From positions 239,842-303,841 of the forward strand of contig PDIP01000010.1 of NCBI GenBank assembly GCA_002811645.1: DNA of 64,000 nucleotides, given 5' to 3'. Positions 2,602-40,867 of this stretch are shown piece after piece (position 1 is the stretch's first letter; each line of letters starts with the position of its first letter). The notes beneath the pieces were generated by a model. The model was not told the origin of the DNA. It did not search any database and saw only the letters and a list, made by a program, of their open reading frames with translations. This DNA comes from Corallochytrium limacisporum Hawaii. Its lineage: Eukaryota; Protista; Pluriformea. The translations under genes were made by a program, and so were the position numbers.

Positions 2602-4645
2602 CTAGTCTATTCCATGATTCCTTTGTGTCGATATTCTGCTTTTCATCATCTGCAAAGATTAGAAATGTTGCATCATTCTCGTCGAACCCCGACTTGTCCT
2701 CGTTGTCTGGTGCAAGTGACTTTCGGAAGAAGTCGTAACTCAGAGACGGCCTGTATGCTTTGAGCATGGCCCGTACACCGTGATCCCGGACTCTTACGCT
2801 AAAGTTCTTCATGATCACCACGTTCATGTTGGCCTTGTCCAAATCTGGATTATCACGCATCAAATTAAAGAATCCATAGTAGTTATCCGTCATGAGACAG
2901 TCCAACACCTTGAAAGCATGACGCACCTCCATAGACTGGGCAATGCTCGGTTGCATACGCTTACGGATCGACATAGCTTCAGCGTATTGCTTTGTATAGC
3001 AATGGTACAGCACGGAGTAACCGGTAAACTCTGCTTCATGCGGATGCACAGGTCTAGAGTCCTGCTGCGTGGTCGTGTTCTCAACTTGATCTTGAGCTCT
3101 AAGTTGAGCACCGGTACGGACAGATCCCTTTTTCTTCTTTTTCTTCGTCCTGCTTGATGCCGCTCTTGGTTTAATGTCCTCATCAGGCTTAACCACAGCG
3201 TAAAGGTGACGCAGCTGACTCAGGCACTGATGCAGTTCCTCCATGTCATGGTTCTCGAGGGATATCCGTGCGTTCTGCTCGTAGACGTAAATTGTAAATG
3301 AATGGCGAATGCACTGCACCGTAAGATCTTGTCGGATGCTCTTCAACTGCTCTCCAGTGTACTCGTAGCTCTTCTGCTCTTTGTATCGCTTCAAGTGGAA
3401 TTCCATTGCAGTTTTCAAAACTTCTTCACTACGCACGTCCTCTGGGTGCGGCGGTGCAGTCAAACGGAAGTATTTCTTCTCCAGGTTCTGTCCGGTACCA
3501 ACAATGGCCAGATTGCTCCAGTCAACTTCATCCATGCCACTGATATCCACCTTCTGTTCATGCGCCTGCGCAATCGCGAAATTTGGATGGGCAGTCATTA
3601 AATGCCCAGCAGACCGTCTGGGGGTGTCCGTTAATGACTTGGCGAAGCGATTTGCCCTGGCATTCTTTGTTTCATGGTCCTCCTGGAGCACACCGCTAGT
3701 GATGCTTGTAAGGGGTTCGTTGCTGATGGCTTGGCCACCCTTTGCTTTCTTAGGCTTTGGGGATTGCCGCGGTGTGGTAGTTGGCGAAGGTAGCGAATCC
3801 AACGGCAGGACTGTAACCTTTGGCTCCCTCTTTGAAATATGCTGCAAGGTGTCCAGGGTCCGCTGTTGGGGTAGGACTGATGTGGTCCCCGGCAATGATG
3901 AAGATGTCTTATTAAGGGTTCTTGTTGCACCGTTTTCAACCGTCTTGTCCTCGGGCGGTGGAGTCGCAAAGCGGCGCCTCTTACGTTTCTTTGTCGGTTG
4001 CTGCTGTGGCGTAGTGGTTGCTTCGTCCAGTGCGATACTGAGTCCTTGTGTAGTCCGTTTGTTCCGCAGAATCGGCGGCTCAAGATCCCAGTCCCTGGTC
4101 TGAATGTCCCCGCGAGCGTAAGCAGCTTCCAAGATTTGTTCAAGGGCCTTCTCAATTTCACTTTCTTTGCCCTGCGCCTTGGCAGCTTCAAAGGATCGTG
4201 CTACGTAGTTTTTCAAGGATTCTGGCCACCCATCTTCGGCATTGTCGTTTTCGCTCTTATTGATCTGGGCTTTTCCCTTGCTGTGTGCCGAAACGGATGA
4301 GCTGGTGGTGGTTGTCTTTTGACTTCCTGCTAGACCCTTTCGTCCAGCTGATTTCCGGTTGGTGGCAGCTACCGGGGACTGCGATAGAGTTGTTCTACGT
4401 CGTCCTGGCATGATACTCGAGTATGTTGGCGCCTGAACTGGAGAATCATTCTTCGCTGAGAAAGAAGACTGCAGAGACGCCTGCTGGCTGTGGGCAACCG
4501 ATGCTGGCCGCGCTGCGGTGGAGGCACCAGCCGCGTATGGATTCGCTGGTGGCCACATCCCTGTCTCCGCAGCGTATTTGGCCCTCCATTCATTGTATTC
4601 ACGCAGATATTTCGCCCACGCAGCAGCATTATCTTCCGTGCCCAT
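2582..4645 (-). CDS. LENG8: SAC3/GANP/THP3 domain protein (LENG8/Thp3-like)
   Basis: IVGTGQNLEKKYFRLTAPPHPEDVR, EQLKSIRQDLTVQ, VYEQNARISLE; also WPESLKNYVARSF; start taken as the ATG at 4645. Confidence 0.85.
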   Translation of the reverse strand: MGTEDNAAAWAKYLREYNEWRAKYAAETGMWPPANPYAAGASTAARPASVAHSQQASLQSSFSAKNDSPVQAPTYSSIMPGRRRTTLSQSPVAATNRKSAGRKGLAGSQKTTTTSSSVSAHSKGKAQINKSENDNAEDGWPESLKNYVARSFEAAKAQGKESEIEKALEQILEAAYARGDIQTRDWDLEPPILRNKRTTQGLSIALDEATTTPQQQPTKKRKRRRFATPPPEDKTVENGATRTLNKTSSSLPGTTSVLPQQRTLDTLQHISKREPKVTVLPLDSLPSPTTTPRQSPKPKKAKGGQAISNEPLTSITSGVLQEDHETKNARANRFAKSLTDTPRRSAGHLMTAHPNFAIAQAHEQKVDISGMDEVDWSNLAIVGTGQNLEKKYFRLTAPPHPEDVRSEEVLKTAMEFHLKRYKEQKSYEYTGEQLKSIRQDLTVQCIRHSFTIYVYEQNARISLENHDMEELHQCLSQLRHLYAVVKPDEDIKPRAASSRTKKKKKKGSVRTGAQLRAQDQVENTTTQQDSRPVHPHEAEFTGYSVLYHCYTKQYAEAMSIRKRMQPSIAQSMEVRHAFKVLDCLMTDNYYGFFNLMRDNPDLDKANMNVVIMKNFSVRVRDHGVRAMLKAYRPSLSYDFFRKSLAPDNEDKSGFDENDATFLIFADDEKQNIDTKESWNRLVSLPGE

Positions 4646-5148
4646 TGCTAATCTATAGTGGCACCGAGTGTTCGGTTGCTTTGACTCCTGTTGTCTACTA
4701 CTCCACCATTGTGGTCGCCCATTCGCGTAGTGTAATGCTATGTTCACATCGTCAAAACAGTGTGGTATACCCCAAAAAGGAACCACAACATATTTTACAT
4801 GGCTTCAAACTGAAGGTTCAGACTTCCACTGTCCAAGTACCACCAGTGTCGGGAAAGGCTTATAAACGACATGTCACCGAAATTGAATGCCGCACTCAGC
4901 CCACCCTCCTCCAGACCGTGCGGTGCCTGCTCCCGTCGTTTCCCTCCCCCCCGTCCCGACGGTACGCTTGGCAAAGGCGCCAGGCAAGGAGGCGCTCGCA
5001 CGAAGAGTTCGCTGTCAGTGGCTATTTGAGACGAAACGATGTACTCGAACTTCTTATGGTATGAGCAAAGTTGCCACAAGGTCGGCAATCAAGGCCAACA
5101 CTTTTTTCTTGTATTATAAAACAACAAGGTACACATGATCTTCGTCTG

Positions 5149-6102
5149 ATGCTTTCGCTCTTACGCACCTGTAAAACCGTCGCGCCAAGCAGTCATCATT
5201 TAGGTTGTGTTTGTGTGATGGGTCGTGTGTCAAAAGGCAAAGCCTCGTACTATGGCGTGCGAAAGGGTCGAAAACCAGGCATCTATCGTGTCTGGGCCGA
5301 TGCAGAAGCGCAAGTGAAGGGATTCACGGGAGCCGTGCACAAGAAATTCCCTAGCGAAGCGGAAGCACAGGCTTTTGTCTACGGACCAACTGGACAACAT
5401 GCGACACAGGCAATGAAGTCCGGCACCAAGCTTCCATCCACAAAATCAGCACGAGCAAAGCCCAAGCCTTTCAGTAGACAGAGCGGGAATTTAGAGGTTG
5501 ACTCGGTTTTGTCCAAGATCAAACTGATTCCCGACCAGGACAGCGACAGAGCCAAACCTGTCTACCTTCTTGGACGATACGTCGCGGGAAAGGGCAGCTT
5601 TTTAATCCACAAGGAAACCGACGCGGTTCACATTTGGACTGATGGTGCCAGCAGCAATAATCAATACCAGGATGATCGGAGAAGGGCTGGCTACGGTGTC
5701 TTCTGGAATGAGAACCATCCGTGGAACACCAGTGAGCGACTGGCTGGGCCATGGAAGGTCCAAACAAATCAGCGCGCCGAGCTGATGGCCGCCCTCGATG
5801 CCATCGAAAGGGCCTCTGAACTTGATCGGGACTTGGTTTTGGTCACGGACTCGAACTATGTCATCAAGGGCATGACGGGAGAATTCAAGAGCATCCTCAA
5901 CAGTGTCAGTGCAGAGCGACTGGCACGGTCGGATCAGAGAGTCGAGGCGGTGGTCAACGGTGATCTTTGGCTGCGCATGTTTGCGTTGCTCAAGTCATCA
6001 AAGCGACAGATCAGTGTACAGCACGTGAAGGGCCACAGTGGTGCCTTTGGCAACGTAGAAGCGGACGATTTGGCAGTGAAAGGAGCGGCGAAATCGCAGT
6101 GA
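5149..6102 (+). CDS. RNASEH1: Ribonuclease H1 (hybrid-binding domain plus RNase H domain)
   Basis: YYGVRKGRKPGIYRVW...FTGAVHKKF; WTDGASSNN, TNQRAELMA, TDSNYVI, HVKGHSGAFGNVEADDLA; in-frame ATGs at 5149 and 5218. Confidence 0.93.
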   Translation: MLSLLRTCKTVAPSSHHLGCVCVMGRVSKGKASYYGVRKGRKPGIYRVWADAEAQVKGFTGAVHKKFPSEAEAQAFVYGPTGQHATQAMKSGTKLPSTKSARAKPKPFSRQSGNLEVDSVLSKIKLIPDQDSDRAKPVYLLGRYVAGKGSFLIHKETDAVHIWTDGASSNNQYQDDRRRAGYGVFWNENHPWNTSERLAGPWKVQTNQRAELMAALDAIERASELDRDLVLVTDSNYVIKGMTGEFKSILNSVSAERLARSDQRVEAVVNGDLWLRMFALLKSSKRQISVQHVKGHSGAFGNVEADDLAVKGAAKSQ

Positions 6103-6235
6103 AGAACCTAAAGAAAGACAAACGTATAATAGTCACTACATAGTACCAGCAATGTCATTGTTTGAGAGAAATAGATACATTAGTGATCTGTATTTTAGTT
6201 GATTCTTTAACAATGCATTTTAACATCGGACATTC

Positions 6236-8311
6236 TCAGAGATCGGATTCACTCGTAGTGTGCACGCTTGTGGATGATGACTCCGCAGGATCTGCTGATA
6301 CTTCCTGTTCGTGGTTGTCAGACTGTGTCACTGCATCCGGCGATTGTGCCTGGTGTTGGAGGATTGCCGCGTCGGTGGCTGACGAAACACGGGTGGGCGA
6401 ATGCGATCCTTCCGACCTACGCAGATTGCGCCGGGTGGCCTCCAATTCACGTACAGAGATCCTTAAGTGATTATCCGGTGAAGGCTCTCCCGTGCTAGTG
6501 CTACCAGAGTTTCGGACATTTGGGGATGCCTCACGCCTGTCGACGGAAGAGGGTTGAGGTGGTGCGTCGAGCAACTCCTTGAGTTCCAAAGGAGTGGTGG
6601 GTTCGGGCGTGGATATCTCCGGGCGCATTCTCCGCGATTCTAGCATGTCCTTTGCCAAATGGTACAATTTAATTGCAATTAGGACGAGTCCCCGCCAGAG
6701 CAATCTTGCAACCAATTGGATGTACCTACGACCAGGACCGTAGCCATTCGCCAGGAGGGCAATGAAGGTGACGTTGAACACTAGTTTGGCAATCGGATTC
6801 TCCAAAATAGATAATCCGTAGTGTTCCTGGTTGAGGATCACCTGCTCCAAAGCATGAATACCAACCGCCCGTCCCAGCAGTGGCTGTGAGGTGGTTAGCA
6901 AGAGGAATGCACTAAGCACCACCAGTAGTCTGTCGAAGGAACGTTCGTCATGTTTCTTGAGCATCTTTTGGGTAATGTCCAATCGCCAGAAGCCGTACAA
7001 GGTAGCCAGAAGAATGTAGACCATCATGGTAACCTGTAATCCAACTGCAATTGGCGGAATGAAGCGCCAAATGACTAATTGACTCAAACCGGCGGCCTTC
7101 AATGCCTCATCCGCATACCGATCGAGCTGGCGTATGACCGGGTTCACAGCTCCCCAGAGCATGTGCAAGGCAAACAGGGTGACCGCAATATAGTTGAATA
7201 CAACGTGCATAGTGTGCACAGTCCTGGGGATACGGAAGGCAGGCATGCGTTCAAGTCCTGTGGCTTCTTGGGCGTTGTGCCGCATCTTACGGTATTCGTA
7301 GCTCTTCCGGAAGTCCTTACCCTGTAGCCTGCTAGAATACACGACCTTCACCTCGCCCTCGATTTCGTCAGCTTCATACCGGCCTTCCCCTTTGCTATCT
7401 TCTGGCACCATCATCAACATAGCAGGGTCTACTGCAACCTCATACTCCACACTGTATCGATTGGTAACACTGGGAAGGGTCCTGAAGCCGTCCGGAGCGC
7501 ACCACGCGAACATTGCAATACCCGCGAAACTGACCAGCAGTTGTAAAACCATAGGTACAGACTGCCAACTCAAACCGATGGTCCAGGTCGCGACTGCGGT
7601 AATTCCAAGAACTAGTGCAGCAATCTGAGCAATGACCACTATAGTTTCCAGCATGTACCCCCAGAACCCCTTTATGATAATCCCTTCCGCCTCGCGAATC
7701 AAGTACGCAAACGGCAACAGCGCAAACATACATATGTTGCTGCTGAGCAGTACTGCTTCCCAAACTCCAGAAATGAGATCAAAGGTCAGCCAATTGAGGT
7801 AATCCGACCCTTGGTTGTTGTGCAGAATGAAATAGCAGATGATTGTCATCGGTTGCAACACGGCCAGGAGAATGGATGTGGCTAGTGTATATGACGCAAT
7901 GATTCGTTGGATCATGCCAGTGATCCATCCATATTCGGTTGACCGATTTCGATCATGCAAGACACGCCGCAATGCTGCGTTTTCTTCCCGTGACTGTGAT
8001 CGTTTGTATTCGCTTATCGATGCTTCTCCTGTAGCCTGACTGCTTCTACGCCTTTGCTGAATCCGTTCAGTAAACACATTGTATTGCAGGACAATTAGAT
8101 AGGACACCAAGAAGAGGATTACGTAAAGCGTCCCCAGTACTGTCTTTTCACGCACGCCCTCATCAAATTCCTGGCCATCAACAATATCATCATTAGTGTC
8201 ATTTACTCCAGGTACACAGATGGATGACCCGTCGATATTGTTAAACTCGTCTGAGTTCCCGGCGCAAGATTGGCCTTCCTGTACCAAGTACGGCAATGCG
8301 AAGGAGCTCAT
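6236..8311 (-). CDS. LMBR1/LMBR1L-like multipass membrane protein
   Basis: 691 aa with many hydrophobic segments; YLNWLTFDLISGVW and SNICMFALLPFAYLIREAEG match LMBR1-family motifs. Confidence 0.75.
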   Translation of the reverse strand: MSSFALPYLVQEGQSCAGNSDEFNNIDGSSICVPGVNDTNDDIVDGQEFDEGVREKTVLGTLYVILFLVSYLIVLQYNVFTERIQQRRRSSQATGEASISEYKRSQSREENAALRRVLHDRNRSTEYGWITGMIQRIIASYTLATSILLAVLQPMTIICYFILHNNQGSDYLNWLTFDLISGVWEAVLLSSNICMFALLPFAYLIREAEGIIIKGFWGYMLETIVVIAQIAALVLGITAVATWTIGLSWQSVPMVLQLLVSFAGIAMFAWCAPDGFRTLPSVTNRYSVEYEVAVDPAMLMMVPEDSKGEGRYEADEIEGEVKVVYSSRLQGKDFRKSYEYRKMRHNAQEATGLERMPAFRIPRTVHTMHVVFNYIAVTLFALHMLWGAVNPVIRQLDRYADEALKAAGLSQLVIWRFIPPIAVGLQVTMMVYILLATLYGFWRLDITQKMLKKHDERSFDRLLVVLSAFLLLTTSQPLLGRAVGIHALEQVILNQEHYGLSILENPIAKLVFNVTFIALLANGYGPGRRYIQLVARLLWRGLVLIAIKLYHLAKDMLESRRMRPEISTPEPTTPLELKELLDAPPQPSSVDRREASPNVRNSGSTSTGEPSPDNHLRISVRELEATRRNLRRSEGSHSPTRVSSATDAAILQHQAQSPDAVTQSDNHEQEVSADPAESSSTSVHTTSESDL

Positions 8312-8711
8312 TGTGTTACAGTGTTGTTCATGTATTCAACTACATCGTACAACTTTTGCTTCTTACATTTTCTTAAACTGCCCAACGGCAGGCTTCAGGC
8401 TCTGAATCAGCTCATGGTGAAATCTCAAGTCGTTTCATGCACCAAACGATTTCGCAGTAACCCTTCCCAGACTCGCCGGTTTCTCCAATAGCAAGCCTTG
8501 CTCTATGGCTTCATCAATTACATTTATAAGATCTTCTCGTTAAAAAACCTTTTTTTTGTAAATTGAACCTTCACAAAGGTGATAAGTGCTGCCAAGAATC
8601 TGATGGTCTCTTGCGCTTTCTTTGTGCTCGTCCCGAGTTCGTTTGCTTGCTGTTCCCTTCCGGGACCCCGTCCCTTTGCGCATCACAGTCCCACAGGTCA
8701 ATACTCAATAT

Positions 8712-9064
8712 ATGAGTTTTTGCGCAACCCACGCGAGACAGGGCGAATTTGAACCGGGCGACGATACTCTTCGGAGTCTTCGGCAAGACGCGGACCCTGA
8801 GGCAGACTATCGTACCCATACCATAGGACTCGAAATCCAAAGCTTTCCAAAGAATATTTTCTTGTACCACGTACTCAGAATGGGTCCCGTCCTGCATCAG
8901 AAAGGGAAACCAGATTGAAAACTTCTCCATAAGAGTTACCTGGGACCTCTTCGTGCACACGTTCGCTTGAAGCCCCAGTTTTCATTAATTTCCCGCTTGA
9001 AAATCTGACACGAATCTTCAGTGTTCCCGAAAGTTTCCCCCGGTTTCCCATAGTAGACCTATGA
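8712..9064 (+). pseudogene. Decayed ARF-like GTPase, ARL6/BBS3-like
   Basis: GEFEPGDDTL has P-loop spacing without K/T; TIGLEIQSFPKNIFLYHVLRMG resembles ARL6 [23 protein letters not shown]; after frameshifts IRVTWDLF, EAPVFI and ENLTRIFSVPESFPRFPIV follow in ARL order. Confidence 0.55.
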
Positions 9065-9176
9065 GGTGTCCGGGGTCATAGTGTTTACTCCCATCATTTG
9101 TGAACAGCTGTCGGTGATGGGATCCCCTCTTGGTATATAATAGTCGTTTGCACTGGGGATGGGAAGGCTAGGGCCG

Positions 9177-9700
9177 ATGAGCCCCTCCCACCGCCTCCCC
9201 TTCCTTGCGGGGTTGGGGAGAGACCCGCTCCAGCAACAGTCGATGTGCGGCCCCTCCTCACTCCCAAAGCTGTCCCCCTCGTATCATAGACTCACTATGA
9301 AACACTGTTTCTGGTCGAGAAGCAGAAGACCGACAAAACTGGGGAAATGAAAGCCCACCACCACAGCGGGGGTTTGTCGTTTGGGTTTGCGTAGGACAGG
9401 GTTTTGGGCGGGAGTCCAAATTTGGGAGTCCAATTAGAATATCTGCCCTAGAACCGCCATAGTCAGGAAGAGTGGACGCACCGTTATCGTTCTACGCCTC
9501 GGTGGAGAGATGAGGGCGACGCGAAACTAGGCCCCCGGAAGCGCCTCACGATGATTCGGGAACAGAGGATTTCAAAGATAAACCGAAAGTATATTGAATT
9601 TACGCCAACTTTGCACGTTCGGACTCTGGTGAATGTCGCCCCGTTGTGGTACTTTCAGTATAGCCGGGACTGGCGAAAAGCCAGTTTTGCCTCGCCACCC
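9177..9700 (+). pseudogene. Decayed radial spoke head RSPH9-like gene
   Basis: N-terminal SSLPKL...CFWSR resembles TSLML...VLFWGR; C-terminal DKPK / LHVRTLV / AGTGEKPVLP resemble DIPK / VVLRSLL / VGTGEKNMDLP, in shifting frames with the middle missing. Confidence 0.5.
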
Positions 9701-10022
9701 AATTGTTGTGATGGGGGAGCGGATAGCCATAGTCACAGATTCCTTCATGAATGAGAAGGGCTGGATTTGGAGACCGGTGGTGACGACGAGGAAAACGATA
9801 GCGGGTTGATGGACTAAGCCACAGTCGCACAGTGTTGCGAACGTATTGAATGTGGTGTTGCTGATGTGAAAACGGGATTGCCCATTACATCTCATACCGA
9901 GACGGCCTCAATAAGCTAAATAGCATCTTCTGCTTAGGGGTTGGTTGGAAAGCTTGGTGATCAATCAGATTAGAAATAGAGGAGTTGCTTCTCAGGTGCA
10001 GTAGTTCCGCAAATAATCAACT

Positions 10023-12281
10023 ATGTCGGGGAGTCTGTACCAGTTGAGTAGAACCCTCCAGGGACATGAACAGGATGTCCGATGCTGCTGTGGTAGTACA
10101 AGTGGCGACGTTGCCACCGGTTCACGGGATCAGTCTGTTCGCCTCTGGACCGCAAGTGATGGCAAGGAAGTCCGCAAACTGTCGCATCACCAAGGATTTG
10201 TATACAGTGTCTCTACCAGCGGGCCCGCTGACGAATATCCAAGTGGTGTCCTACTCACTACAGGCCAGGACAAACTCGGATATGTCTTTGACCTCTTTCA
10301 GGCAGATGAGAACCCTTTATTCGTATTAATCGGACATTCGGAAGCAGTGTGCAGTAGCGATGTGTATGTGGATCAAGGAACGGGCCAGGTAATGAGCGCC
10401 ACAGGGTCGTGGGATTGTTCTGCCAAAGTGTGGGATGGAGCAACTTGTATCGCCACGTTTGCGCACCAACTCAGTGTCTGGGATGTTTGCTTGATTCCTG
10501 CCAAAGATCACCCGTCAGGCGAACTGACCCTGCTCACGGCCTGTGCGGACAAAATGATCCGACGTTTTAGTGTAAAGGGTCAAACTTGTGTCCAGACCTA
10601 TGCACAACATGATGATGCTGTCCGCGGGCTTGTGCATGTGCCTGGTCTTGGCTTTGCAAGCTGCTCCAACGACGCAAAGATTGTGCTCTGGGCCCATGAC
10701 GGTGCTATTCTTAAGGAGTTCCATGGTCATACATCGTTCATCTACTCGATTGATTTACTCCCCGATGGTTTGCGCCTGGTAAGCGGTGGCGAAGACCGGA
10801 CCATGCGCCTGTGGGACATTGAGAGTGGCAACTGTACTCAAATCGTTCACGTACCCGCCGTGTCCGTATGGTGCGTGAGCGCACTGAAGAACGGAGACAT
10901 TGTCCAGGGTAGCAGCGACGGATTGGCGCGCATCTTCACCCAGGAGGCCAATCGAATCGCCCCTGCAGCAGAGCGGGAGACCTACGAAGCGAGTCTGAAG
11001 GCGCAGGAAATGACTCACAACGAATTTAATGATATTGACTTCAATTCCCTGCCCGGATTCGAAGCACTGAGCAAACCAGGAGAACGTGAGGGCCAGACCA
11101 AACTGATCAAGCAAGACGACAAAGTGGTTGCCTACCAATGGCTGGCCAGCCAGAAGACGTGGCAGGAAATGGGTCAGGTAGTGGACAGTGTCGGACAAAA
11201 GAAAAAGCAGCTATACAACGGTAAAGAATACGACTACGTTTTTGATGTGGACATTGGCCAGGGCCGGTTCGCGAAACTACCTGTGAACTCTGGTGAGGAT
11301 CCCTACAAAGCTGCAGAACGTTTCATTAAGGAACAAGGGCTAACTGAGGCGTATCTAGAACAGATCGTTGAATTCGTTAAGGAGAACGCCAAGGCCGCTG
11401 GCGGAGGACCAACAATCACACAAACGACTGCCGGATCGACACAAGCAAACCATACACCGCTGCCTCCGAAGAAAGATGCCCCAATTCCCAACATGACCTT
11501 CGTCAAGTTCTCCAAGGCAAACTTTGACGGCCTACTGAGCAAGTACCAGGAGTTGGAAGCAGGACAGGGTCCCTCAGACGCAAGCAAGCTTGTGAACAAT
11601 CTGATGGAAAGCTTCAAGGCCAAGTCTGTGACGGAGCGAGACTTCAGGGAAGGGTTTAAGAATGGTGTCATCCCCGTTCTCAAGTCGTGGCCAACGGACA
11701 AGCTCTTCCCAGTGATTGATTTCTTGCGGATTGCTTTACTCGAGGATGGTCTTTGCCTGACTGTCGCTGCATGTTTGACGGAAGACATTCTCACCGATCT
11801 GACTTCAGCACACATGTGCGCATCTAGCCCGACACCGCTGTTGCTATGTTTGTTGCGCATGCTTTGCAATCTGTCGGGAGTTCCCTTCGGCCGTAACCAA
11901 CTGCTTAAGTGCGGGGATGCGATACTGCCGTCAGTGGTCAGTCTAAACGAGCAAGACAATCGGAATCTTGCTCTTTCCAAGGTATCGCTGCTGCTGAACT
12001 ACTCTATCATGATCTACCTCCGTGATTTGTCTGGTCCGGTGATCACTAAGGCATGTGAGGACATGGTTACGCAACTCGTCGATCACATCAACAGGAACAT
12101 TGACGAAGAGGTGACCTATCGTGCAATGGTGACACTTGGACACATTGTCTTGGTCAACAGACCCCTCGGTCGGGCTAGTCGTGAGCAGGCTGTGGTCACT
12201 GGGCTTCGCAAACTGCAAGAAAATGGTCCTGCCCGGCTTGCGGAGTGTGCCTTTGTATTGGAGAAAGCAGTCAACCAGTAG
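10023..12281 (+). CDS. PLAA: Phospholipase A2-activating protein/Doa1/Ufd3 (WD40-PFU-PUL)
   Basis: WD40 repeats (GHEQDVR, GHTSFIYS), PFU motif YNGKEYDYVFDVDI, PUL motif WPTDKLFPVIDFLR. Confidence 0.95.
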   Translation: MSGSLYQLSRTLQGHEQDVRCCCGSTSGDVATGSRDQSVRLWTASDGKEVRKLSHHQGFVYSVSTSGPADEYPSGVLLTTGQDKLGYVFDLFQADENPLFVLIGHSEAVCSSDVYVDQGTGQVMSATGSWDCSAKVWDGATCIATFAHQLSVWDVCLIPAKDHPSGELTLLTACADKMIRRFSVKGQTCVQTYAQHDDAVRGLVHVPGLGFASCSNDAKIVLWAHDGAILKEFHGHTSFIYSIDLLPDGLRLVSGGEDRTMRLWDIESGNCTQIVHVPAVSVWCVSALKNGDIVQGSSDGLARIFTQEANRIAPAAERETYEASLKAQEMTHNEFNDIDFNSLPGFEALSKPGEREGQTKLIKQDDKVVAYQWLASQKTWQEMGQVVDSVGQKKKQLYNGKEYDYVFDVDIGQGRFAKLPVNSGEDPYKAAERFIKEQGLTEAYLEQIVEFVKENAKAAGGGPTITQTTAGSTQANHTPLPPKKDAPIPNMTFVKFSKANFDGLLSKYQELEAGQGPSDASKLVNNLMESFKAKSVTERDFREGFKNGVIPVLKSWPTDKLFPVIDFLRIALLEDGLCLTVAACLTEDILTDLTSAHMCASSPTPLLLCLLRMLCNLSGVPFGRNQLLKCGDAILPSVVSLNEQDNRNLALSKVSLLLNYSIMIYLRDLSGPVITKACEDMVTQLVDHINRNIDEEVTYRAMVTLGHIVLVNRPLGRASREQAVVTGLRKLQENGPARLAECAFVLEKAVNQ

Positions 12282-12415
12282 ATTTCTGATACGTGGCGAA
12301 ACTCAGGTGATGTATTGACCCTGAAACTTAGTACATTAGGACGAGTGTGCATGAGCACCAGAAACAGATCTTTAGCAAATACAGCCCCACGTTCACATGT
12401 GAGAACACAGCATAT

Positions 12416-12671
12416 TTATTCAGTGACGTCAGGCGTGTGCGTCTCCTCTCCATCGTAGAATGCGTTGCCCGACTTGGTACAAATGTCCAGAAGATGTTGA
12501 TGCTCGGCCTTCAGGTCCTCGTTTCCCCGTTCAATCTCGCGAATCCTTCTGTCCATGCTGCACATACTTTCTTTAGAGTATGCCTTCACCTCTTGCTCAA
12601 AGTCAGTGCCTTGTGTGGTGACATCCATGTCCTGTAGGCTCACTTTAACTTCATGCACAATTGTGAACACC
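12416..12671 (-). pseudogene. Possible decayed IFT20-like gene
   Basis: GVH[+1 frameshift]IVHEVKVSLQDMDVTTQGTDFEQEVKAY aligns without gaps to IFT20 [31 protein letters not shown]; shortened downstream. Confidence 0.45.
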
Positions 12672-12729
12672 AATCGGCCGCCCACAATGGCGAGTGTTTG
12701 GCCAGCTAAGCAAAATTGCTGAAGACCAA

Positions 12730-12784
12730 CAAAAAAAAAAAAAGAAGAAGGAGAAGGTTAGAAAAAAAGAAAAAAAAGCAAAAA
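12730..12784 (-). terminator. Oligo-T tracts downstream of tRNA-Ser (Pol III terminator)
   Basis: Several runs of four or more T on the minus strand beginning about 27 nt after the tRNA 3' end. Confidence 0.6.
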
Positions 12785-12810
12785 GAGCAAGTACACACTG
12801 TACTAAGGGA

Positions 12811-12938
12811 CGACAGCTGTGGGGTTTGAACCCACGCGGGCAAAGCCCATTGGATGACCTTTTAGTATCGCACCAGGCCAAAGGCCAAAGTGTGACAAAA
12901 ATTCAAGTCCAACCCCTTAACCACTCGGGCAAGCTAAT
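12811..12938 (-). tRNA. tRNA-Ser(UGA) with 46-nt intron (12856-12901) and mispaired acceptor positions 1-2
   Basis: D arm CCCGAGTGGTTAAGGG, anticodon stem TTGGA/TCCAA with loop CT-TGA-A, long variable arm GGGCTTTGCCC, T arm GTGGG-TTCAAAC-CCCAC, G73 discriminator, downstream oligo-T. Confidence 0.9.
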
Positions 12939-13216
12939 ACCGAGGGGCGAAAAATTAATATATGAACTACTGATAGATAAAAATATTCGCGCATGGCCGT
13001 ATGAGTATCCCGCCCACGAGGGGTTTGTGTCGCCGCTGGGAGGGCAAGTCAGTTTGGGACAGCCAGCCGCAGGACGGTCCAAGGACTGTTTCCGCTGTCC
13101 GTACTTTTTGGAACGGGGTTCTGGTGCTTAAATGATTGCAACTGCAGTGTTCAAGGCATTAGAAAAGTACTTACCATACGTACATTGTGAGGATTGATCC
13201 GGTTTTTAGAAAAGCG

Positions 13217-13573
13217 ATGGCAGAACCAGGAGTACAGCGGGTGGTGCGCTTCCTATCCAAATCCATAGAAAGCAAACCTCAGCTTGAGGCTACTACAAAT
13301 CGACTTTTGGCTCTGTTCAGCTCAGCAGCTGGGAAAGATGAGGCAAGGGACAGTACATTAGAACATGATATGGTAGATTACCACAGGCATCTGAAGGGAA
13401 ATACAGAGCACGCCCGTCTCTTGCGAACGTACTACATGCAGGATCTGATGAGTGAGAAAGAACGCACCGAAAAGGCAGCCCAGCGCGTGGGTCTGAATTT
13501 GCCAGTGACTCCGAATCTTCCGTTTGACTACGATACATCAGATGCGTCGGGCGGAGAATCAAAGAAGGAATAA
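13217..13573 (+). CDS. FMC1-like mitochondrial ATP synthase assembly factor
   Basis: 118 aa; EHARLLRTYY and ERTEKAAQRVGLNLP match the FMC1 C-terminal motif. Confidence 0.65.
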   Translation: MAEPGVQRVVRFLSKSIESKPQLEATTNRLLALFSSAAGKDEARDSTLEHDMVDYHRHLKGNTEHARLLRTYYMQDLMSEKERTEKAAQRVGLNLPVTPNLPFDYDTSDASGGESKKE

Positions 13574-13659
13574 ATGATCATCAGGATAAGAATTAAAGAA
13601 CACGTACCTTTCAAACTAATAAACAAGACTGTAAAATTTTGTAATCATCAATATAATGT

Positions 13660-15024
13660 TCAGACACGCTGAACGTAGTTTGCAGGAAACAAGCCACGAT
13701 TACCATGCAGTTGACCTTCCCACCAATCATCGTTTGATGATCCCTGTCTAAGCACGTCGATGACATCGCCCGAGTTGAAGCTCAGCTGCCAGCTCTCTGT
13801 CGCCGTGTAATCGTAGTCTGCCCGCACCACGGCTACTACCGGAACGGAGTCGTTCGTAGACACGGCCCCTGCACTGTTGTAGCCGTAGTCATAGGGTGGT
13901 GGTGGATCGGCGTGCATCGTTCCCGTGCCCCAATTCGAGCCGCCGCCCGCAGAAGCCCCTGCCGCGGCCGTCTTCATGCCGCTCAGATCGACAGTTTTAT
14001 TCGATTGGCCCATGCGGGCAGCCATGGGGCTTCTTTGTCCAATATCTGTGTCATTAGAGAAGTAGGCCTTCTGTGCCGTAGGCTGCGGTGGTTCGACTGC
14101 TGCGGTTCCAGGCAGAGGCGAAGTCTCACGGCCCCGACGACCAAAAGAAACCGGGGCACCAATCGGACGACTTGCGCCCGAAGCGCTGTGAGGGCTTGTG
14201 TCCGTCCGGGAACTGCTACCGCCCATGTTCGGCGCAGGAGGCCGGCTCGGGGCAGCGCTACCGCTGGCATTTTTGTTTGTACTGGCTGCTGCTGCAGTAC
14301 CCGCAGCTGCCGACTCCGACCCACGACCAAAGCCCTTAAACTTCGTGCCAAGGTCGCTGGCCCCACGCTCAACCTGGTTCCGTGCCTGGTGCAGCTGGCC
14401 GGACATTGGAGCTAGGCGGTTTAGTTCGGCGTACAGCATGTCCAGCTCTTCGCACTTGGGTGGGACAACGTCACCGGTCAGAATTTCCTTGGCCCTGATG
14501 CCTTCCATGTTGTAAAAGTCCTTGTTGGCATCCTTCCGTTCCATAATACCACTGCCCTCCAAGCTCACACCGACGTACGCACCAGCACTCTTGCAGTACG
14601 TGAATACGGCAGCAGTAGAGCGAATAGCGGCATCTACTTCTCCGGTACGGCCATAGGGACCCGCCGCCGCACTGAGATTGCCACCGAGGGTAACGTTACC
14701 GCCCTTGGAGAAAGCTCCCACGGCCTTGTCATTCCGCAAAATGAAAACAAAGCTGCTAATCTGAGCACCGATTTCAAACCCGCCACCAATACCACCCATA
14801 CCAATAGCTGATGGTGCGGACCAGCCCTTCGAAGTCTTCGCAATGACTAAACCACTGCCACCACGGGCAGAAAGTAAGAAACCCGTCTTCAACACAGAGA
14901 GCACGGCTATGCCCCTACAGCCTTCAAAGGCTTTCTCTGGGATCAGATTCTCAAAGTCCCGAAGGATCTTTGAGCACTTTTTCGACTCCTTTCGGAGAGA
15001 ACCTGGCACAGGGTTTTGAACCAT
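13660..15024 (-). CDS. SH3YL1: SYLF/Ysc84 domain plus C-terminal SH3 protein
   Basis: KTGFLLSARGGSGLVIA, WSAPSAIG, GGNVTLGGNLSAAAGPYGR; SH3 ADYDY...LSFNSGD...WWEG...GLFPANYV. Confidence 0.93.
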   Translation of the reverse strand: MVQNPVPGSLRKESKKCSKILRDFENLIPEKAFEGCRGIAVLSVLKTGFLLSARGGSGLVIAKTSKGWSAPSAIGMGGIGGGFEIGAQISSFVFILRNDKAVGAFSKGGNVTLGGNLSAAAGPYGRTGEVDAAIRSTAAVFTYCKSAGAYVGVSLEGSGIMERKDANKDFYNMEGIRAKEILTGDVVPPKCEELDMLYAELNRLAPMSGQLHQARNQVERGASDLGTKFKGFGRGSESAAAGTAAAASTNKNASGSAAPSRPPAPNMGGSSSRTDTSPHSASGASRPIGAPVSFGRRGRETSPLPGTAAVEPPQPTAQKAYFSNDTDIGQRSPMAARMGQSNKTVDLSGMKTAAAGASAGGGSNWGTGTMHADPPPPYDYGYNSAGAVSTNDSVPVVAVVRADYDYTATESWQLSFNSGDVIDVLRQGSSNDDWWEGQLHGNRGLFPANYVQRV

Positions 15025-15493
15025 TGTGGTGTATTCCTATCCTACGCTTTCAAGTCTTCCCTGTTCCTAATTGTGCCCAACCAACCGGTTCTCGCTGTAA
15101 CACCCTTATACACTCTCACCGCAGCATAACTGCTGCAAACCTTTCTGGAAAGTCAATCTAGGTCGACCGTCTGAAGTAACTCAAACTGATGTTCGGTCGT
15201 CACACTAAGAAGAAAGGAATGTGGCCGAAGTGACGCACTCCCAAACCTTACCCATCTCAACACGTAAACTCGACGTCAGAACCACCTCTGCCCCAGAAGA
15301 CTAGGAAGAAAAAGGAAACTCCCAGTTGGTCAACTCCCCGGGCTATGGCGACGAAGACTGGTGCGGAGTCGGGCGCGGTAGGGGTGTGGGTGGGGTGAAG
15401 GGAGACATGGGTGTTGCGTTGTTTGGTGTCCTCTCCCCCCTCCCCCCACCCTCCTCCACAAAGGAGCGAATGAGAAGACAGACTGCGGCAGGG

Positions 15494-16047
15494 GGTTTCC
15501 ACAAGTGGTTTCGCCCAATGGACACACACATTTTTTACCCGCACACACTTCCCGGCGAGTGTCTCAACCCATCCATCGCCTTTCTATAAGCTGCAGTGGG
15601 TGGAGAGAATGAGGCTGGAATCCTTCCCCTCCAACCGCCAACCCCCGGGGAAAGGTTCCAACCGCGACCGTTGATGATATGTACGCCAGGAGCAGGGGGG
15701 AGGAGAGAAAAAAATTTTCCAGTGGCACAGACACACATTCCCTGTATCCAATTGGGTCACTGGGGCCTGCCTTATTTATTCCCCCTTATCAATCTACAAT
15801 TTCAGTAGTGAATGTGTGTTGATCCCCGCGGTGTCATAGTAGCGAACAGCGTTACGCCGTGGCGCATATGCGAAGATCACTGCGATGATATGGACAGAGC
15901 AGTAACTCACTGATCGCTCGATGAATGTTTCCAACGGCTTCCCAAGAAAATGCTACAGTGACTACGTTTCGTGCGCTCGAGGTTGCAGTTAACTTTTCCA
16001 AGCCAAACCCGTAGACAATTGACCGTTTCTCTTGCACTCATTGTCAT
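15494..16047 (-). pseudogene. Decayed B9-domain ciliary transition-zone gene (B9D2/B9D1-like)
   Basis: GKFFSLLPPAPGVHIINGRGW...GGWRGRIPASF resembles B9D2 [21 protein letters not shown]...GSWREQLARAF; upstream *HRGDQHTFTT resembles WSHPIDLHFAT; stops and frameshifts throughout. Confidence 0.65.
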
Positions 16048-16435
16048 GACGCCGCGAGTGATTTACGTATATATCGGGTTCTCCTCGCTCGCTTCATGGT
16101 CGTAATTGGAGAGCCGCAACCACTTTCAACCCCTGACCACCCCTTGGTAGCTTTGCTCGGCGACATAATGCAGCGCATTGCTATTTCGAACATATAGACA
16201 GAGGCGCTTTCCCAACCGTTGCAAATTAGTAGTGGTGGCAGTTGCTCTAGTATTGGATCCTCAATCCCATCATATGGTCATTAGGGGATAACTTCACCAA
16301 AACCTTGGTGGAAAGGGGGCCGATTTTTTGGAGGGAAAATTTTGAACAAGCAAAGCTCAGGTAGAGCAGCGGTGGCCGGTCGATGTTGCATTGTCTCCGT
16401 CTATTCCAACTTGTACTACTAGTAATAATGATATG

Positions 16436-17401
16436 TCAGGCATGTAACGTGATGTTGTCGACTTTTTTGTACTGTCGGACTAAACCCTCAGTGTGCTTGC
16501 GACTGTAGATATGTTCCAAGTAGCCATCGAAGTGTAGGTTACAGACCTCACAGAAGGACGAACGATATTTGATTCCTTGCATCTGCTTCATCTGCGGCTT
16601 TGTTTCCACCCTTGGGCGCCGGATACCTGGTTCAAGGAACGGACTAAGTCCTGGTCTAACTTCAAAGTGAATGCGGGACTCTGGTGTCTCTTTCCTGGCC
16701 AAAGCAGCGTATTGTCCAGAGATGTCTTCGAGTCTAAACGACTTCCCGCTAAGGTAGACCCTCTTTAGCTTCATCTTCTGTCCGTTCTGCTCTCGGACAT
16801 GCTGCATTTCATTTTCTGTAATATTTAGAGCCCTCCACACAGCAGAGATGGAGCTCAAACGGACGCCCATGCGACGCAGTACCGCCGGGAGTTTGCCCTT
16901 CTCGACGCTTCCGGGGACCGCGGGCGGGTTTGGACAAAAGGAACATTTTGCTGCCGGAATGAAGTAAATCCGTTTGTTCGCCTTTCTGCAATTCACCGGG
17001 CTGCTCTGGTCTTTTCTTTTCAGGAACAACCCGATTTCTTTCCAAATTGCAACGTTCTTACACTGCTCCAGACACCGAACAATTACCTGCATGTCTGATT
17101 TCACATGGTCGCACACCCCCGGTCCGTCACCAAGGATATATTCCTTGCGCATTGGTCCTTTGGAAATGCGACTGTTGATCTTGAGCATTTGGAGAATAGG
17201 GTCTACCACAAGAGATGGGGGTTCTTCCATAGGAAGGTCCACATTACTCGATACTGTGGCAAGCATTTCATAGACGTCCTCCTCGTCGAGCGATTCACCG
17301 CTGCTGATCTCGACCGGGTATAAGTCCACGTCATCATCACTTTGTGTTTCCAGGCAATTTTCTACTCCAATTTCTTGGAGAAATGCTACAGGACTCTCCA
17401 T
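16436..17401 (-). CDS. DBF4: DBF4-like Cdc7 regulatory subunit
   Basis: C-terminal zf-DBF FCEVCNLHFDGYLEHIYSRKH; motif-M-like YLSGKSFRLEDISGQY; motif-N-like RRMGVRL. Confidence 0.7.
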   Translation of the reverse strand: MESPVAFLQEIGVENCLETQSDDDVDLYPVEISSGESLDEEDVYEMLATVSSNVDLPMEEPPSLVVDPILQMLKINSRISKGPMRKEYILGDGPGVCDHVKSDMQVIVRCLEQCKNVAIWKEIGLFLKRKDQSSPVNCRKANKRIYFIPAAKCSFCPNPPAVPGSVEKGKLPAVLRRMGVRLSSISAVWRALNITENEMQHVREQNGQKMKLKRVYLSGKSFRLEDISGQYAALARKETPESRIHFEVRPGLSPFLEPGIRRPRVETKPQMKQMQGIKYRSSFCEVCNLHFDGYLEHIYSRKHTEGLVRQYKKVDNITLHA

Positions 17402-17867
17402 AATCTGGTTTTGTATCCGCCGTCCCGGACTTCTGTCCTTACTTAAAAGTATGCACGCATTTACAATGAAACGGACTGCAGAGTGACGGATCTCTTCACT
17501 GACGACCTAGCTTCCCATTCTTTCAACTGTGTACCACATAAGAATTGCATATTCTTTTCAACCCAAATCATTTCATATTGATCACGAAACGGACACAACC
17601 ACATAGCGTTTGAAATAGCATCCATTTCTCATTTAAAAAACAAACTCCGAGTTCTCCTTGGAGGGGGACAGGTTTGCGGCCGTTGAGACCGCGAGGGGAG
17701 GTGGGGACTTCGCGCCCAAAACTCGCCTTTTAAACTACGGAGTGAGGCACTCAGGGGTGGCCTTGCTGTTTTCTTTCAAGGGAAGTAATACAGCGGGAGG
17801 ATAGGCTTTTAATTATCGTTGCAGTCGAATTGTATAGCTTCAATATTCCTTTCAGGGCCTGAAGGGG

Positions 17868-18872
17868 CTACACCAGGCCACCTTGTGAGATCTTGGAAGT
17901 GTACATGTTGAGGGCACGGGTGAGTTCCTCGTTCTCCTTCTTCAGAACATTTAGACGTTTCTGCAGTTCCTTGGACTGCTGCTTGGTAAGGTCGTAGTCA
18001 CGGAGTAGAGTGGCATTACCGACCAGACCATGTCTTGACTTCAGGGCTGTGGTTGAGTTGCGGAGGCGGTCCCGAGAACACTTGACACTGTTGACGGAGT
18101 CCGCTCCTCCAGCAGTTGACCCTCTACCAGGTTTAACTGTCGTCCCTTAGTGTAATTGTCCTGTTTTACGTGATGAAGTTTCTCTTTGATGTGGGTCAGA
18201 ATCTGTACATTCTGATGGATCTTCTTGCGCAGCTTACTGAGCTCTTCGTTACGTTCCCCAATCTTTTCGTTGTAGGTTTGGTTCTCAATCTTGAGCTGTT
18301 CAAAGTCAATAAGATGCAGGCCTTGCTCATCTCCTCGCTTTGCTTCAATTGAGTCTCGTACTCGTTCAGCGCACTGGTTAGGATGGCGTGCTGCAGGCTC
18401 CATTCCTTGACGGCTACGGCCTTCTCGTACTCGGCCGCGTTCATGGCACAGACCACCTTTAGTCCAATTGGTTTTCCATTCGCACTGCTAACCGACATTG
18501 CGCCAAACTCCTTGAGCCGTTGCTTGTATTCCACCTGGAGTTCTGCTATCACCTCTTGGGCCTGGTTCATGTTGCTACTGAAGCGAGACTTCTCCTGGGC
18601 GAGATCCACTCCAACTGAAGGTCTCCCGGCAGTGAGACACACACGCACATTCTGGGTGCCACAGCAGCCTTTCCCTCTTTGATCAACCGACACCTTGGGT
18701 CTCGTCCCTACCAGCTGAGTGAAGACTTCGTGACCCCACCGAACAAGTCGTCATCACCCCGAGTACCCCGGATCCGTTCCTCCCTTACCACACTATCAAT
18801 TTGCTTCCCCGATCGTTTGACGGAATTGGGTGGAAACCTGCGCTCGTACCCCCGGGAGCGTACCGCAGACAT
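17868..18872 (-). pseudogene. CCDC96: Frameshifted CCDC96/CFAP184 (DUF4201) flagellar gene
   Basis: GKPI...ETQLKQSEEMS [1-nt deletion near 18324] GLHLIDFEQLKIENQTYNEKIGERNEELSKLRKK...VQILTHIKEKL...R [1-nt deletion near 18100] DSVNSVKCSRDRLR...GLVGNATLLRDYD; TAG at 17868-17870; similarity recognisable up to about 18620, 5' boundary uncertain. Confidence 0.88.
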
Positions 18873-37816: not shown

Positions 37817-38043
37817 NNNNNNNNNNNNNNNNNNNNNNNNNNNNNNNNNNNNNNNNNNNNNNNNNNNNNNNNNNNNNNNNNNNNNNNNNNNNNNNNNNNN
37901 NNNNNNNNNNNNNNNNNNNNNNNNNNNNNNNNNNNNNNNNNNNNNNNNNNNNNNNNNNNNNNNNNNNNNNNNNNNNNNNNNNNNNNNNNNNNNNNNNNNN
38001 NNNNNNNNNNNNNNNNNNNNNNNNNNNNNNNNNNNNNNNNNNN
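37817..38043. other. Assembly gap (227 N)
   Basis: Run of N flanked by G-rich sequence. Confidence 1.
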
Positions 38044-38500
38044 GGTGTTAGGGGGGAGGAGGGAGTGATACAGCGCCGGCGATTGGCTGTCTATTATTTA
38101 TACGGAATTTGTAATATCAGCGGAACGGCCGGCGTGATTAGCCGTAGTAAAACATGAAGAAAAACTTGATATACATATACGGAAAGTTTTATATATGGTT
38201 CATTTTACGCAGAGAATTTCCAAGGCCGTGAGCGGGAAAAGCCAGCGGGAAGACCCCCCGACCTTTCGAAGGTGCGGTGATGCGGACTCGTGCTTTTCGG
38301 ATAACTGTCTCTGTTACTCTCTCTCGCAGGCGCGCTCTCGCCATTGCGTACGATAACATTTGACAGGCTAGTTGAATGTTCGACATGTTCTCAGAGACAT
38401 TGTGTGATGGTTCGATGCCGATGATCCCAGTGCATGGGGAGAACGGGAGCAAATATTCCAGACATGATCGCACGTTTGCGGACGTGATACAGTTAGTAGT

Positions 38501-40867
38501 ATGATTGTCATTCGAAGGTCGCCGGCGCGCACAGTGGCACTCTTGTCGTGGGCGCTGCCAGCTGGCGCCCGGTACATTACAAGGTCGTCATGGCAAGGCG
38601 ATCGTACAGAGGGAACCACGACTAATAGCGGTGATGGTATGAACCAACGAACTTATGCACAGTCACCATCTGTGCCACCGTCCACTACTATTGACATGGC
38701 TAGCATACACCGCATGAGTAATCTGTGGGTTCCAACAGTTCTGGATGATCCCTCTCAGACAACAACAAATTGCCATCGTTTGCTCCTACAGTCAGGGGTC
38801 GTACACCAGAACGGGCAGGGACTGTTTTCCTTCCTCCCTGTGGGTTTGCGGATTATGACCAAGATCGAGCGAATTATTGATGAAGAACTAGGGAAACTTG
38901 GCTGCCAGAAATTGGCCATGCCATACATGAGCCCAGTGAGCCTGTGGGCATCAAGTGGTCGGAGCGAAAGCCTTGGCAAGGAGACCTTTCGCGTGCAGGA
39001 CCGTAAACACCAAACGTACATACTGAACCCAACTCATGAAGAGGTAGTCTGCGAATTGGTCAACAGCGGCTTAAAGAGCTACCGTCAGCTTCCCTTGCGT
39101 GTCTACCAGACTGGACGCAAGTACAGAGATGAAATGCGTGGTCGGGGTGGCATGCTGCGAGCGCGGGAGTTCCATATGAACGACCTCTACACCTTCGACG
39201 TCAGTCCTGAGGCAGCGGCAGAAACATACGGGGAAGTAATGCAGGCATACCATGCAATTTTCAGCCGTCTAGGTGTGGATCATCTGGTGGCGGAGGCCAG
39301 CAATGGTTCTATGGGTGGCAGAGGCAGTCACGAATTCCACATTGTCTCCGATGTCGGGGAGGACCATGTGTTGTGGTGCAACAAGTGCAATTATGCGGCC
39401 AACGTGGAGGTTGCGTCATCGATAGGACGGCTGGACATGACTCCTGGAGCTGCTGTGAAGGCAATGGAAGGCGTAGAAGGATTAGGCTCTTCGTCGTCGG
39501 CGATGACAGACGATGATGGCAGCACGGATGCCACGGAATTGCCTGTGACCTCGTCGGAGATCAAGGCCAAGGGAACGCAAGTTATGCAGCAGTACCACAA
39601 CAAGGAGCATGTCAGACCGACGGAATTAGGTGCACATCCTGATCATGCAACAAGTGGATCATCACAACAACCTACCGTCGATTTGGAGACTTTGGAACTG
39701 ACGGGCCCGATCTTGCACAAAATGAACGAGTATGTGTTCGGCAATCCTATGGTCCTTGCATCCGCACCCCTGGCTAAGGGATATCTTTACGTGGGCAGCC
39801 CCAAGAAGAAGACCAAGGCCGTAGATAGGGCTGTAAGCAAAGGTCGAGAGCCTGGAGTAGCTGTTCTGGCTGTGGTGGGACCGGACACGGTGGTTAATGT
39901 GACTAAATTGGAACAGCGATTCCCGGGCGTCGTGGATCTGAAGCCTATCAGGGCCTCTGATGTTCATGTACTTGAGGCACTGTTGAGCACGGTGAAGACA
40001 GAAAGTACACAGGATCAACAAAGGCAGCAGCAGGAGGGTACCAGCGTCAAGGCGAACGTCAGCGAGTCCACGAACAAAGCATTGCGCGAGGAATGCCTGC
40101 AAGCGCTGAAGAATCACTTCTTTGTTAACTTGTCACCACCGTCAAACACGGTGCCACCATCTGACAAAGCCATGGATATTCTTGGTAAGGTCTCCGCTAT
40201 GGACCGCAATGTGGTGGCCTCCTCCAACACCGACATTGCCACTGCAGCGTCTGGCGACCGCTGTGCTAGCTGCTGCGCTGGAACACTACAGGACGCTCAG
40301 TGCATTGAAGTGGGGCATACGTTTTACCTCGCTGATACCTACACGAACCCAATGAAGATCGTCTACCAAGACCAGAAGGGTAAATTAGCAACCCCAGTCA
40401 TGGGATGCTACGGCATAGGTGTAAGTCGACTCGTTGCCGCCGTAGCAGAGGTGAATCATGACGACCAGGGACTGATGTGGCCGGTGGCCATGGCACCGTA
40501 CACCGTCGCGGTGGTGCCACTGGGATCCAAGAAGAACGGAACGCTAGATCGGTTACGCGTTGGCGGGTTTGAGGTTGCATCCGAACTGCTGAGTAAGATT
40601 CCGACCCTGGCCGGCGAAGTGATCGTAGATGACCGTGATGCCACGCCGGGCTTCAAGTTGAAGGATGCGGCCCTAATGGGTCATCCTCTGGTCGTGGTTT
40701 TGGGCAATGACTTTTCCCACGAGAATCCAGCAGAGCGTAAGGTCGAGGTCCAGAATCGGCGCACGGGACAAGTCAGCCACCACCGTCTAGACACGCTACC
40801 GTCAGTGGTAGGGCATCTGCTAGCGGAGCAGGGTGTTTTGCAGACGGCATCGGCCATGGCATTGTAA
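38501..40867 (+). CDS. PARS2: Mitochondrial (bacterial-type) prolyl-tRNA synthetase
   Basis: LNPTHEEVV, SYRQLPLRVYQTGRKYRDEMRGRGGMLRAREFHMNDLYTFD, MGGRGSHEFH, IEVGHTFYL, MGCYGIGVSRL, DDRDATPGFKLKDA. Confidence 0.93.
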   Translation: MIVIRRSPARTVALLSWALPAGARYITRSSWQGDRTEGTTTNSGDGMNQRTYAQSPSVPPSTTIDMASIHRMSNLWVPTVLDDPSQTTTNCHRLLLQSGVVHQNGQGLFSFLPVGLRIMTKIERIIDEELGKLGCQKLAMPYMSPVSLWASSGRSESLGKETFRVQDRKHQTYILNPTHEEVVCELVNSGLKSYRQLPLRVYQTGRKYRDEMRGRGGMLRAREFHMNDLYTFDVSPEAAAETYGEVMQAYHAIFSRLGVDHLVAEASNGSMGGRGSHEFHIVSDVGEDHVLWCNKCNYAANVEVASSIGRLDMTPGAAVKAMEGVEGLGSSSSAMTDDDGSTDATELPVTSSEIKAKGTQVMQQYHNKEHVRPTELGAHPDHATSGSSQQPTVDLETLELTGPILHKMNEYVFGNPMVLASAPLAKGYLYVGSPKKKTKAVDRAVSKGREPGVAVLAVVGPDTVVNVTKLEQRFPGVVDLKPIRASDVHVLEALLSTVKTESTQDQQRQQQEGTSVKANVSESTNKALREECLQALKNHFFVNLSPPSNTVPPSDKAMDILGKVSAMDRNVVASSNTDIATAASGDRCASCCAGTLQDAQCIEVGHTFYLADTYTNPMKIVYQDQKGKLATPVMGCYGIGVSRLVAAVAEVNHDDQGLMWPVAMAPYTVAVVPLGSKKNGTLDRLRVGGFEVASELLSKIPTLAGEVIVDDRDATPGFKLKDAALMGHPLVVVLGNDFSHENPAERKVEVQNRRTGQVSHHRLDTLPSVVGHLLAEQGVLQTASAMAL

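Follow-up and report, generated by a model that had tools for sequence, protein, structure and literature searches.

A nuclear tRNA-Ser(UGA) gene of Corallochytrium limacisporum mispaired only at acceptor positions 1–3, a putative substrate for 5′ editing

Introduction

Why would a nuclear tRNA gene be paired throughout except at the first three positions of its acceptor stem? The question is raised by a tRNA-Ser(UGA) gene of Corallochytrium limacisporum in a 64,000-nucleotide stretch of contig PDIP01000010.1, the whole of which was analysed and is called the window here. Mismatches confined to the first three pairs are described for mitochondrial 5′ editing in Acanthamoeba, Dictyostelium and chytrids (PMC4284800). 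All reports of such editing concern organellar tRNAs. The reviews treat as open questions both the lack of it in nuclear tRNAs and the substrates of cytosolic Thg1-like proteins (TLPs), and one review, as of 2014, presents nuclear tRNA 5′ editing beyond the G-1 addition to tRNA-His as not known (PMC4284800). Our searches of the open-access literature since 2014, main texts only, turned up no nuclear tRNA that is said to be edited in this way. Searches for work on Thg1 or TLPs in holozoans and on the tRNAs of the Corallochytrium lineage yielded nothing usable, and the word "editing" is absent from the Sphaerothecum mitochondrial paper.

The mispairing described here is a real and unusual anomaly, and the editing pathway that might correct it is putative. 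If editing does occur, this close relative of animals supplies a concrete nuclear substrate for 3′–5′ refill; should the gene prove to be a damaged spare, there would be nothing out of the ordinary in it.

Structure of the gene

The gene lies at 12811..12938 on the minus strand and has 128 nt, of which 82 belong to the mature tRNA and 46 to an intron. It matches Rfam RF00005 with 30.9 bits (cut-off 29), is split into two exons and an intron, and is the only tRNA match in the 64-kb window even at a lax E-value. Default ARAGORN did not call it at 12938-12811, and a low-threshold ARAGORN run on the window returned noise.

Exon 1 (12902..12938, 37 nt), read from the sequence and the Rfam alignment, holds the acceptor 5′ strand, the D arm with the A box (about 12931-12921, with a C10-G25 pair), the UGA anticodon and A37. 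Exon 2 (12811..12855, 45 nt), read from the sequence, a B-box scan and comparator genes, holds the anticodon 3′ strand, a 4-bp variable arm, the T arm with the B box (12832-12823), the acceptor 3′ strand and G73. The intron (12856..12901) interrupts the gene at 37/38, folds as a long hairpin and opens with a run of five Ts (T5); an intronless foreign Ser(UGA) contig aligned to the gene skips exactly these 46 nt. The third-last base of the intron, a G, could pair with C32, under what we take to be the pairing rule for that position.

Acceptor positions 1–3 (12936..12938) read A-U-U and face C72, U71 and G70. The acceptor pairs run, in order, A-C, U-U, U-G, A-U, G-C, C-G and U-A, followed by G73, and the Rfam match independently marks pairs 1-72 and 2-71 as non-standard; the mispairing that a sequence-only reading of the window had pointed out is thus confirmed. 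The remaining 21 stem pairs are all Watson-Crick, four of them in the acceptor and 17 in the D (3 bp), anticodon (5 bp), variable (4 bp) and T (5 bp) arms. Among the features of a functional tRNA-Ser, the gene has G73, a long variable arm, A and B boxes and paired D, anticodon and T arms; it lacks a seven-pair acceptor stem with G1-C72.

Other identities and arrangements were considered. tRNA-Sec and tRNA-Leu are ruled out by the UGA anticodon, A37 and G73. Reading of the sequence for a shifted acceptor register, or for an upstream GAC joined through an extra intron, found no fitting sequence, and a scan of the 64-kb window led us to reject a second gene copy or att-like fragment inside it.

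Genomic context

All described cases of 5′ editing are organellar, and on this point the gene differs from them: the proteasome, PLAA and SH3YL1 genes of its surroundings, together with the 37/38 intron, identify the locus as nuclear. The window is gene-dense and almost without spliceosomal introns; the value given for Corallochytrium is 0.0 introns per CDS kb (PMC5560861). The tRNA gene sits between the converging ends of two intronless genes, a PLAA/Doa1-like gene (10017..12281, plus strand; WD40, PFU and PUL domains by Pfam; RNA-type contig reaching to 12390) and an SH3YL1/Ysc84-like gene (13660..15036, minus strand; assigned by Pfam and homologues; RNA-type contigs at 13243-13606 and 13742-14500). 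Most homologues of the SH3YL1-like protein come from animals and are about 50% identical to it. The best single-domain matches of the proteasome subunit include Capsaspora and the EukProt entries Opistho-1 (89%), Sdes and Nk52, which we take to be unicellular holozoans. Pfam found no Thg1-like protein among the 22 window ORFs.

Several other features of the window were recorded. A low-depth RNA-type contig of the X4 set (depth 5.4) covers 12458-12716, a stretch downstream of the PLAA end as well as of the tRNA terminator. At 2582-2601 the 3′ ends of two stop-to-stop frames, those of a Dus gene (plus strand) and a SAC3/GANP gene (minus strand), share 20 bases. A class II aminoacyl-tRNA synthetase is encoded at 38468-40867, its 179-position core profile spread over about 490 residues by large insertions, and an assembly gap of 227 N occupies 37817-38043.

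Recurrence of the A-U-U triplet

We examined the triplet in other contig sets. X1 and X2 are two DNA runs from one sample, possibly the window's own source, and show 0 differences from the window over 12787-13050. X7 is a seawater metagenome from another study; its 235-nt contig covers 12826-13059 with 0 substitutions and extends beyond positions 1–3 by >100 nt on either side. The same A-U-U in X1, X2 and X7 means that the triplet is neither an assembly error, which can be ruled out, nor private to one culture. Over 2,273 nt the RNA-type contigs of X4 depart from the window at 5 letters and by 1 indel; judged by this divergence, X7 is evidently a very close strain, so its sharing of the triplet covers a short divergence only and says nothing on long-term conservation.

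Comparison genes and folding

Comparators came from 45 viral and metagenome loci selected with D-arm and anticodon patterns, and most are genes of giant viruses. In 32/32 distinct comparator Ser(UGA) genes all seven acceptor pairs are Watson-Crick or G-U, and none has an acceptor mismatch. Columns were compared over the 31 comparators of 82 nt (2/33 having been dropped for length), and G1, C72 and G73 are invariant among all 31. The GTC-G 3′ end of our gene is shared by 20 of the 31, and the 5′ start facing it is GAC in 15 and GGC in 5. From the columns conserved in at least 90% of the comparators, of which the D-arm and anticodon ones were preselected by the search patterns, the gene departs at 4/51: A1 and three T-stem letters. 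The latter three sit in Watson-Crick pairs, which leaves A1 as the only uncompensated departure, and we read the compensated pairs in the tRNA body as a sign of long structural selection.

Folding was predicted for two forms of the mature tRNA. The encoded form is predicted to misfold, with acceptor pair probabilities of 0–0.25. With positions 1–3 rebuilt from the 3′ strand, a cloverleaf is predicted with acceptor pair probabilities of 0.82–1.0, and the energy goes from -25.9 to -33.1 kcal/mol. It is this pattern of mismatches that gives editing its weight: three independent changes would fall on exactly these paired positions in about 1 in 17,000 cases, as against about 1 in 80 for a single multi-base event falling at positions 1–3, and the single event needs an unseen divergent working copy.

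A pattern scan of viral contigs found 0 close relatives of the locus. The same scan of metagenome contigs found 11 loci, all fully paired Ser or Leu genes of other organisms, with no close relative among them. One contig, L039, carries a eukaryotic tRNA-Leu(UAA) at 1221-1304 in a ten-gene cluster, whose D arm, anticodon stem and T stem are common with the window Ser(UGA), an example of the likeness of Ser and Leu tRNAs. The giant-virus contig L058 carries 18 eukaryote-type tRNA genes in 15 kb (3521-18639).

Search for an intact copy

The gene region was compared at 80% likeness with the whole of X1 and of X2, which comprise 26.8 and 37.9 million letters; this comparison may omit some contigs without notice and works on contigs in which alleles are collapsed. 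Each gave one contig, of 9,853 and 9,688 nt respectively, unbroken across the gene. A second locus sharing at least 31 letters would normally break de Bruijn contigs. No paralogue contig was found in X1 or X2 at 80% likeness; Ser(AGA), Ser(GCU) and any Ser(CGA) were likewise undetected there, and a working copy, if divergent, may therefore have escaped detection. Genes for Ser(AGA) and Ser(GCU) must exist in the genome.

As a positive control, the same comparison drew from X5 a giant-virus-like Ser(UGA) about 79% identical to ours, sharing at most 15 exact letters with it and having ends that match L017; short, divergent tRNA pieces are thus detectable. X9 had no contig matching the region, and X5 and X10 gave only unrelated tRNA pieces on the gene. 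In simulation, a parent gene shared a 15-mer in 99.9, 99, 88, 63 and 18% of trials at 2, 5, 10, 15 and 25% divergence, and parents within 2% shared a 31-mer in 86–96%.

Of the 830 Ser codons in 19 window ORFs, 121 are UCA, a codon whose use requires a working Ser(UGA) tRNA. From this normal UCA use, the unbroken single contigs and the lack of a paralogue in X1 and X2, a young copy of an intact gene and a near-identical intact parent both appear unlikely, and the gene is probably single-copy. A young pseudogene or paralogue with a replaced 5′ flank had been one of the two explanations offered from the sequence, and a fully paired Ser(UGA) copy had been named as what to look for. The first is weakened by the lack of a second copy in X1 and X2 and by the AT-rich upstream segment described below; as to the second, a near-identical copy is absent from X1 and X2, and a divergent one falls within the detection limits given above.

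Transcription signals

Neither of the two RNA-type contig sets, X3 and X4, has a contig over the tRNA gene, a result that carries no weight as to its expression. Upstream of the gene, from -53 to -12, lies an AT-rich segment (12950..12991, minus strand; 79% AT) with TATA-like words, the likely Pol III upstream flank. By AT content it ranks among the top 0.3% of the 28,588 windows of 42 nt that lie outside ORFs (average 50% AT), the edges of the segment having been chosen by eye. That it is kept in place speaks against a 5′ flank replaced as a whole and is still compatible with the alteration of a few boundary bases.

The intron carries a signal of another kind. Its first five bases are T5 (12901-12897), and in X7 the run is T6, with an extra A behind 12896; this rests on one contig of depth 2.3 and is possibly erroneous. 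The intron T5 could stop Pol III. T4 is enough as a Pol III stop in human, while T5 is minimal in budding yeast, where read-through of T5 is backed by longer runs (PMC3141230), and the commonest terminator of S. pombe is reported as 5T (PMC4982682). By chance, about 6% of 46-nt non-coding stretches here contain T5. As an observation in itself, the intron T5/T6 is relevant to how few Ts suffice to stop Pol III in the Corallochytrium lineage.

The 3′ trailer (12731..12810, minus strand), the likely terminator, consists of a 6-bp hairpin followed by T5, T8, T7 and T13 starting at 12784, 12777, 12768 and 12743. The hairpin (12804-12790) is perfect over its 6 bp and stands between G73 and the first T run. 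That first T5 begins 27 nt after G73, and the stacked T5-T8-T7 would fit an organism with a leaky T5. The sequence-only reading had held the other arms, the A and B boxes, the intron position and the terminator to be intact; the 21 Watson-Crick pairs, the boxes and the 37/38 intron bear this out, whereas the intron T5 had been overlooked.

Between the leader and the 5′ strand of the D arm (12921-12948) about 10 pairs can form, at -11 kcal/mol. This was noticed post hoc and is equalled by 132/5,000 random and 203/5,000 shuffled leaders (p about 0.03–0.04). An origin of the 5′ end by fold-back was rejected on that weak, post hoc value and because the centre misfits a perfect palindrome.

Candidate explanations

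We give a probability of roughly 0.4 to a working gene whose A1-U3 are removed and refilled to GAC by templated 3′–5′ synthesis, the agent being a putative Thg1-like polymerase. Two features of an editing substrate are present: genomic mismatches limited to acceptor pairs 1–3, and a standard 3′ strand able to template a normal 5′ end, as shown by the 20 of 31 comparators and the cloverleaf of the rebuilt form. In the pathway that we envisage, Pol III would transcribe the gene from its A and B boxes, reading through the intron T5, and the transcript would be spliced at 37/38. A1-U3 could be removed by a nuclease or by an RNase P cut at +4, or could be avoided by a start at +4, which, more speculatively, would be set by the TATA-like word at -24. 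A Thg1-like 3′–5′ polymerase would then refill positions 1–3 to GAC on the 3′ strand as template, and the product would be serylated through G73 and the long variable arm, which are the elements of eukaryotic serine identity (PMC9976931). Cytosolic TLPs that repair 5′-truncated tRNA in vitro do exist, DdiTLP4 being the reported example (PMC5041481).

A wider proposal is put forward tentatively: a holozoan would edit the 5′ ends of nuclear-encoded tRNA, its sole tRNA-Ser(UGA) being made with A-U-U, which a 3′–5′ polymerase of the cytosol or nucleus would replace by G-A-C. It would be the first nuclear tRNA dependent on such editing, and other tRNA genes may be equally relaxed at positions 1–3.

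Nearly as likely as editing is that the gene is a recently damaged spare, in which G1-A2-C3 was lost at the 5′ boundary through a small deletion or a single change of several bases, while a divergent Ser(UGA) gene does the work elsewhere and the intron T run drifts without selection. The T5 of the intron, T6 in X7, speaks for such a spare, as does the first downstream T5 at 27 nt, compared with such a run within 15 nt in >97% of yeast tRNA genes (PMC3141230). tRNA genes, like the sequences that flank them, are reported to carry a heavy load of mutations, with many damaged alleles (PMC13010820). The working copy that this explanation calls for could have escaped us, given that detection falls to 63–18% at 15–25% divergence and that the other Ser isoacceptors went undetected in X1 and X2 as well, and one event (about 1 in 80 places) accounts for the clustering. 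Against it stand the lack of a near-identical copy or contig break in X1 or X2, the 21 stem pairs free of further defect, the AT-rich upstream flank that has been kept, the same triplet in a wild strain (X7), and the fact that chance alone puts T5 in some 6% of such stretches. The low prior of editing and the intron T run keep the damaged-spare explanation close to the editing one.

Much less probable is use of the tRNA as encoded: its acceptor stem of 4 bp and U3-G70, frayed at the end, would still be processed, and a SerRS that reads G73 and the long variable arm, not pairs 1–3, would charge it. Both of these identity elements are present (PMC9976931) and the gene is apparently single-copy, but an acceptor mismatch occurs in 0/32 comparators, the encoded form is predicted to misfold, and yeast tRNAs with unstable acceptor stems are described as decay substrates (PMC10275265).

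We regard as improbable a heterozygous locus in which a defective AUU allele stands beside an intact GAC allele collapsed by the assemblers. Contigs do drop variants, X4 at about 0.2% difference from the window could be a second haplotype, and we found no published ploidy for the organism in the literature; nevertheless, X1, X2 and the independent X7 all have the triplet of the window. Least probable of all is a non-coding Pol III element (a boundary between convergent genes, as the position might suggest, or the source of a short RNA that stops at the intron T5), since such roles would not keep all tRNA stems paired, or a 5′ end made by fold-back rearrangement, to which the leader/D-arm pairing lends itself but as a weak hairpin noticed post hoc.

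Editing, which the sequence-only reading had offered as its other explanation, has thus gained from the lack of a second copy in X1 and X2, the recurrence of the triplet in X7 and the AT-rich upstream segment, has lost by the intron T5/T6, and remains putative.

Comparison with known systems

Damaged nuclear tRNA alleles that arise by transcription-associated mutagenesis are common, and two of the three changes from GAC in our gene (G>A and C>T) are of the types typical of them; they are described in multi-copy families, whereas no near-identical sibling of our gene was found in X1 or X2 and the changes are limited to three adjacent bases (PMC13010820). The G-1 addition by Thg1 to cytosolic tRNA-His is given as the only known 3′–5′ addition on a nuclear-encoded tRNA (PMC4284800). 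It differs from the proposed refill in that a single non-templated base is added to one tRNA, from which no encoded base is taken away.

The cytosolic DdiTLP4 of Dictyostelium is a 3′–5′ polymerase that repairs 5′-truncated RNAs, tRNA among them in vitro, and is the kind of enzyme that the Ser(UGA) gene would need; its reported substrates are, however, 5S rRNA and Class I RNA, and the account does not give a mispaired nuclear tRNA gene as a known target (PMC5041481). Reviews of 2019 and 2023 still describe editing for mitochondria only and call the role of TLP4 unknown (PMC6471195, PMC10275265).

The closest likeness is to the mitochondrial 5′ editing of Acanthamoeba castellanii, Dictyostelium discoideum (by DdiTLP3), Physarum and chytrid fungi. 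That editing serves most of the tRNA set of a mitochondrion, whereas here one gene is known, from DNA alone, and it is nuclear, with A and B boxes and a eukaryotic intron. The mismatches are found in both at 1-72, 2-71 and 3-70 only, including a pair of the G-U type, opposite a standard 3′ strand on which the 5′ end could be rebuilt (PMC4284800, PMC5041481).
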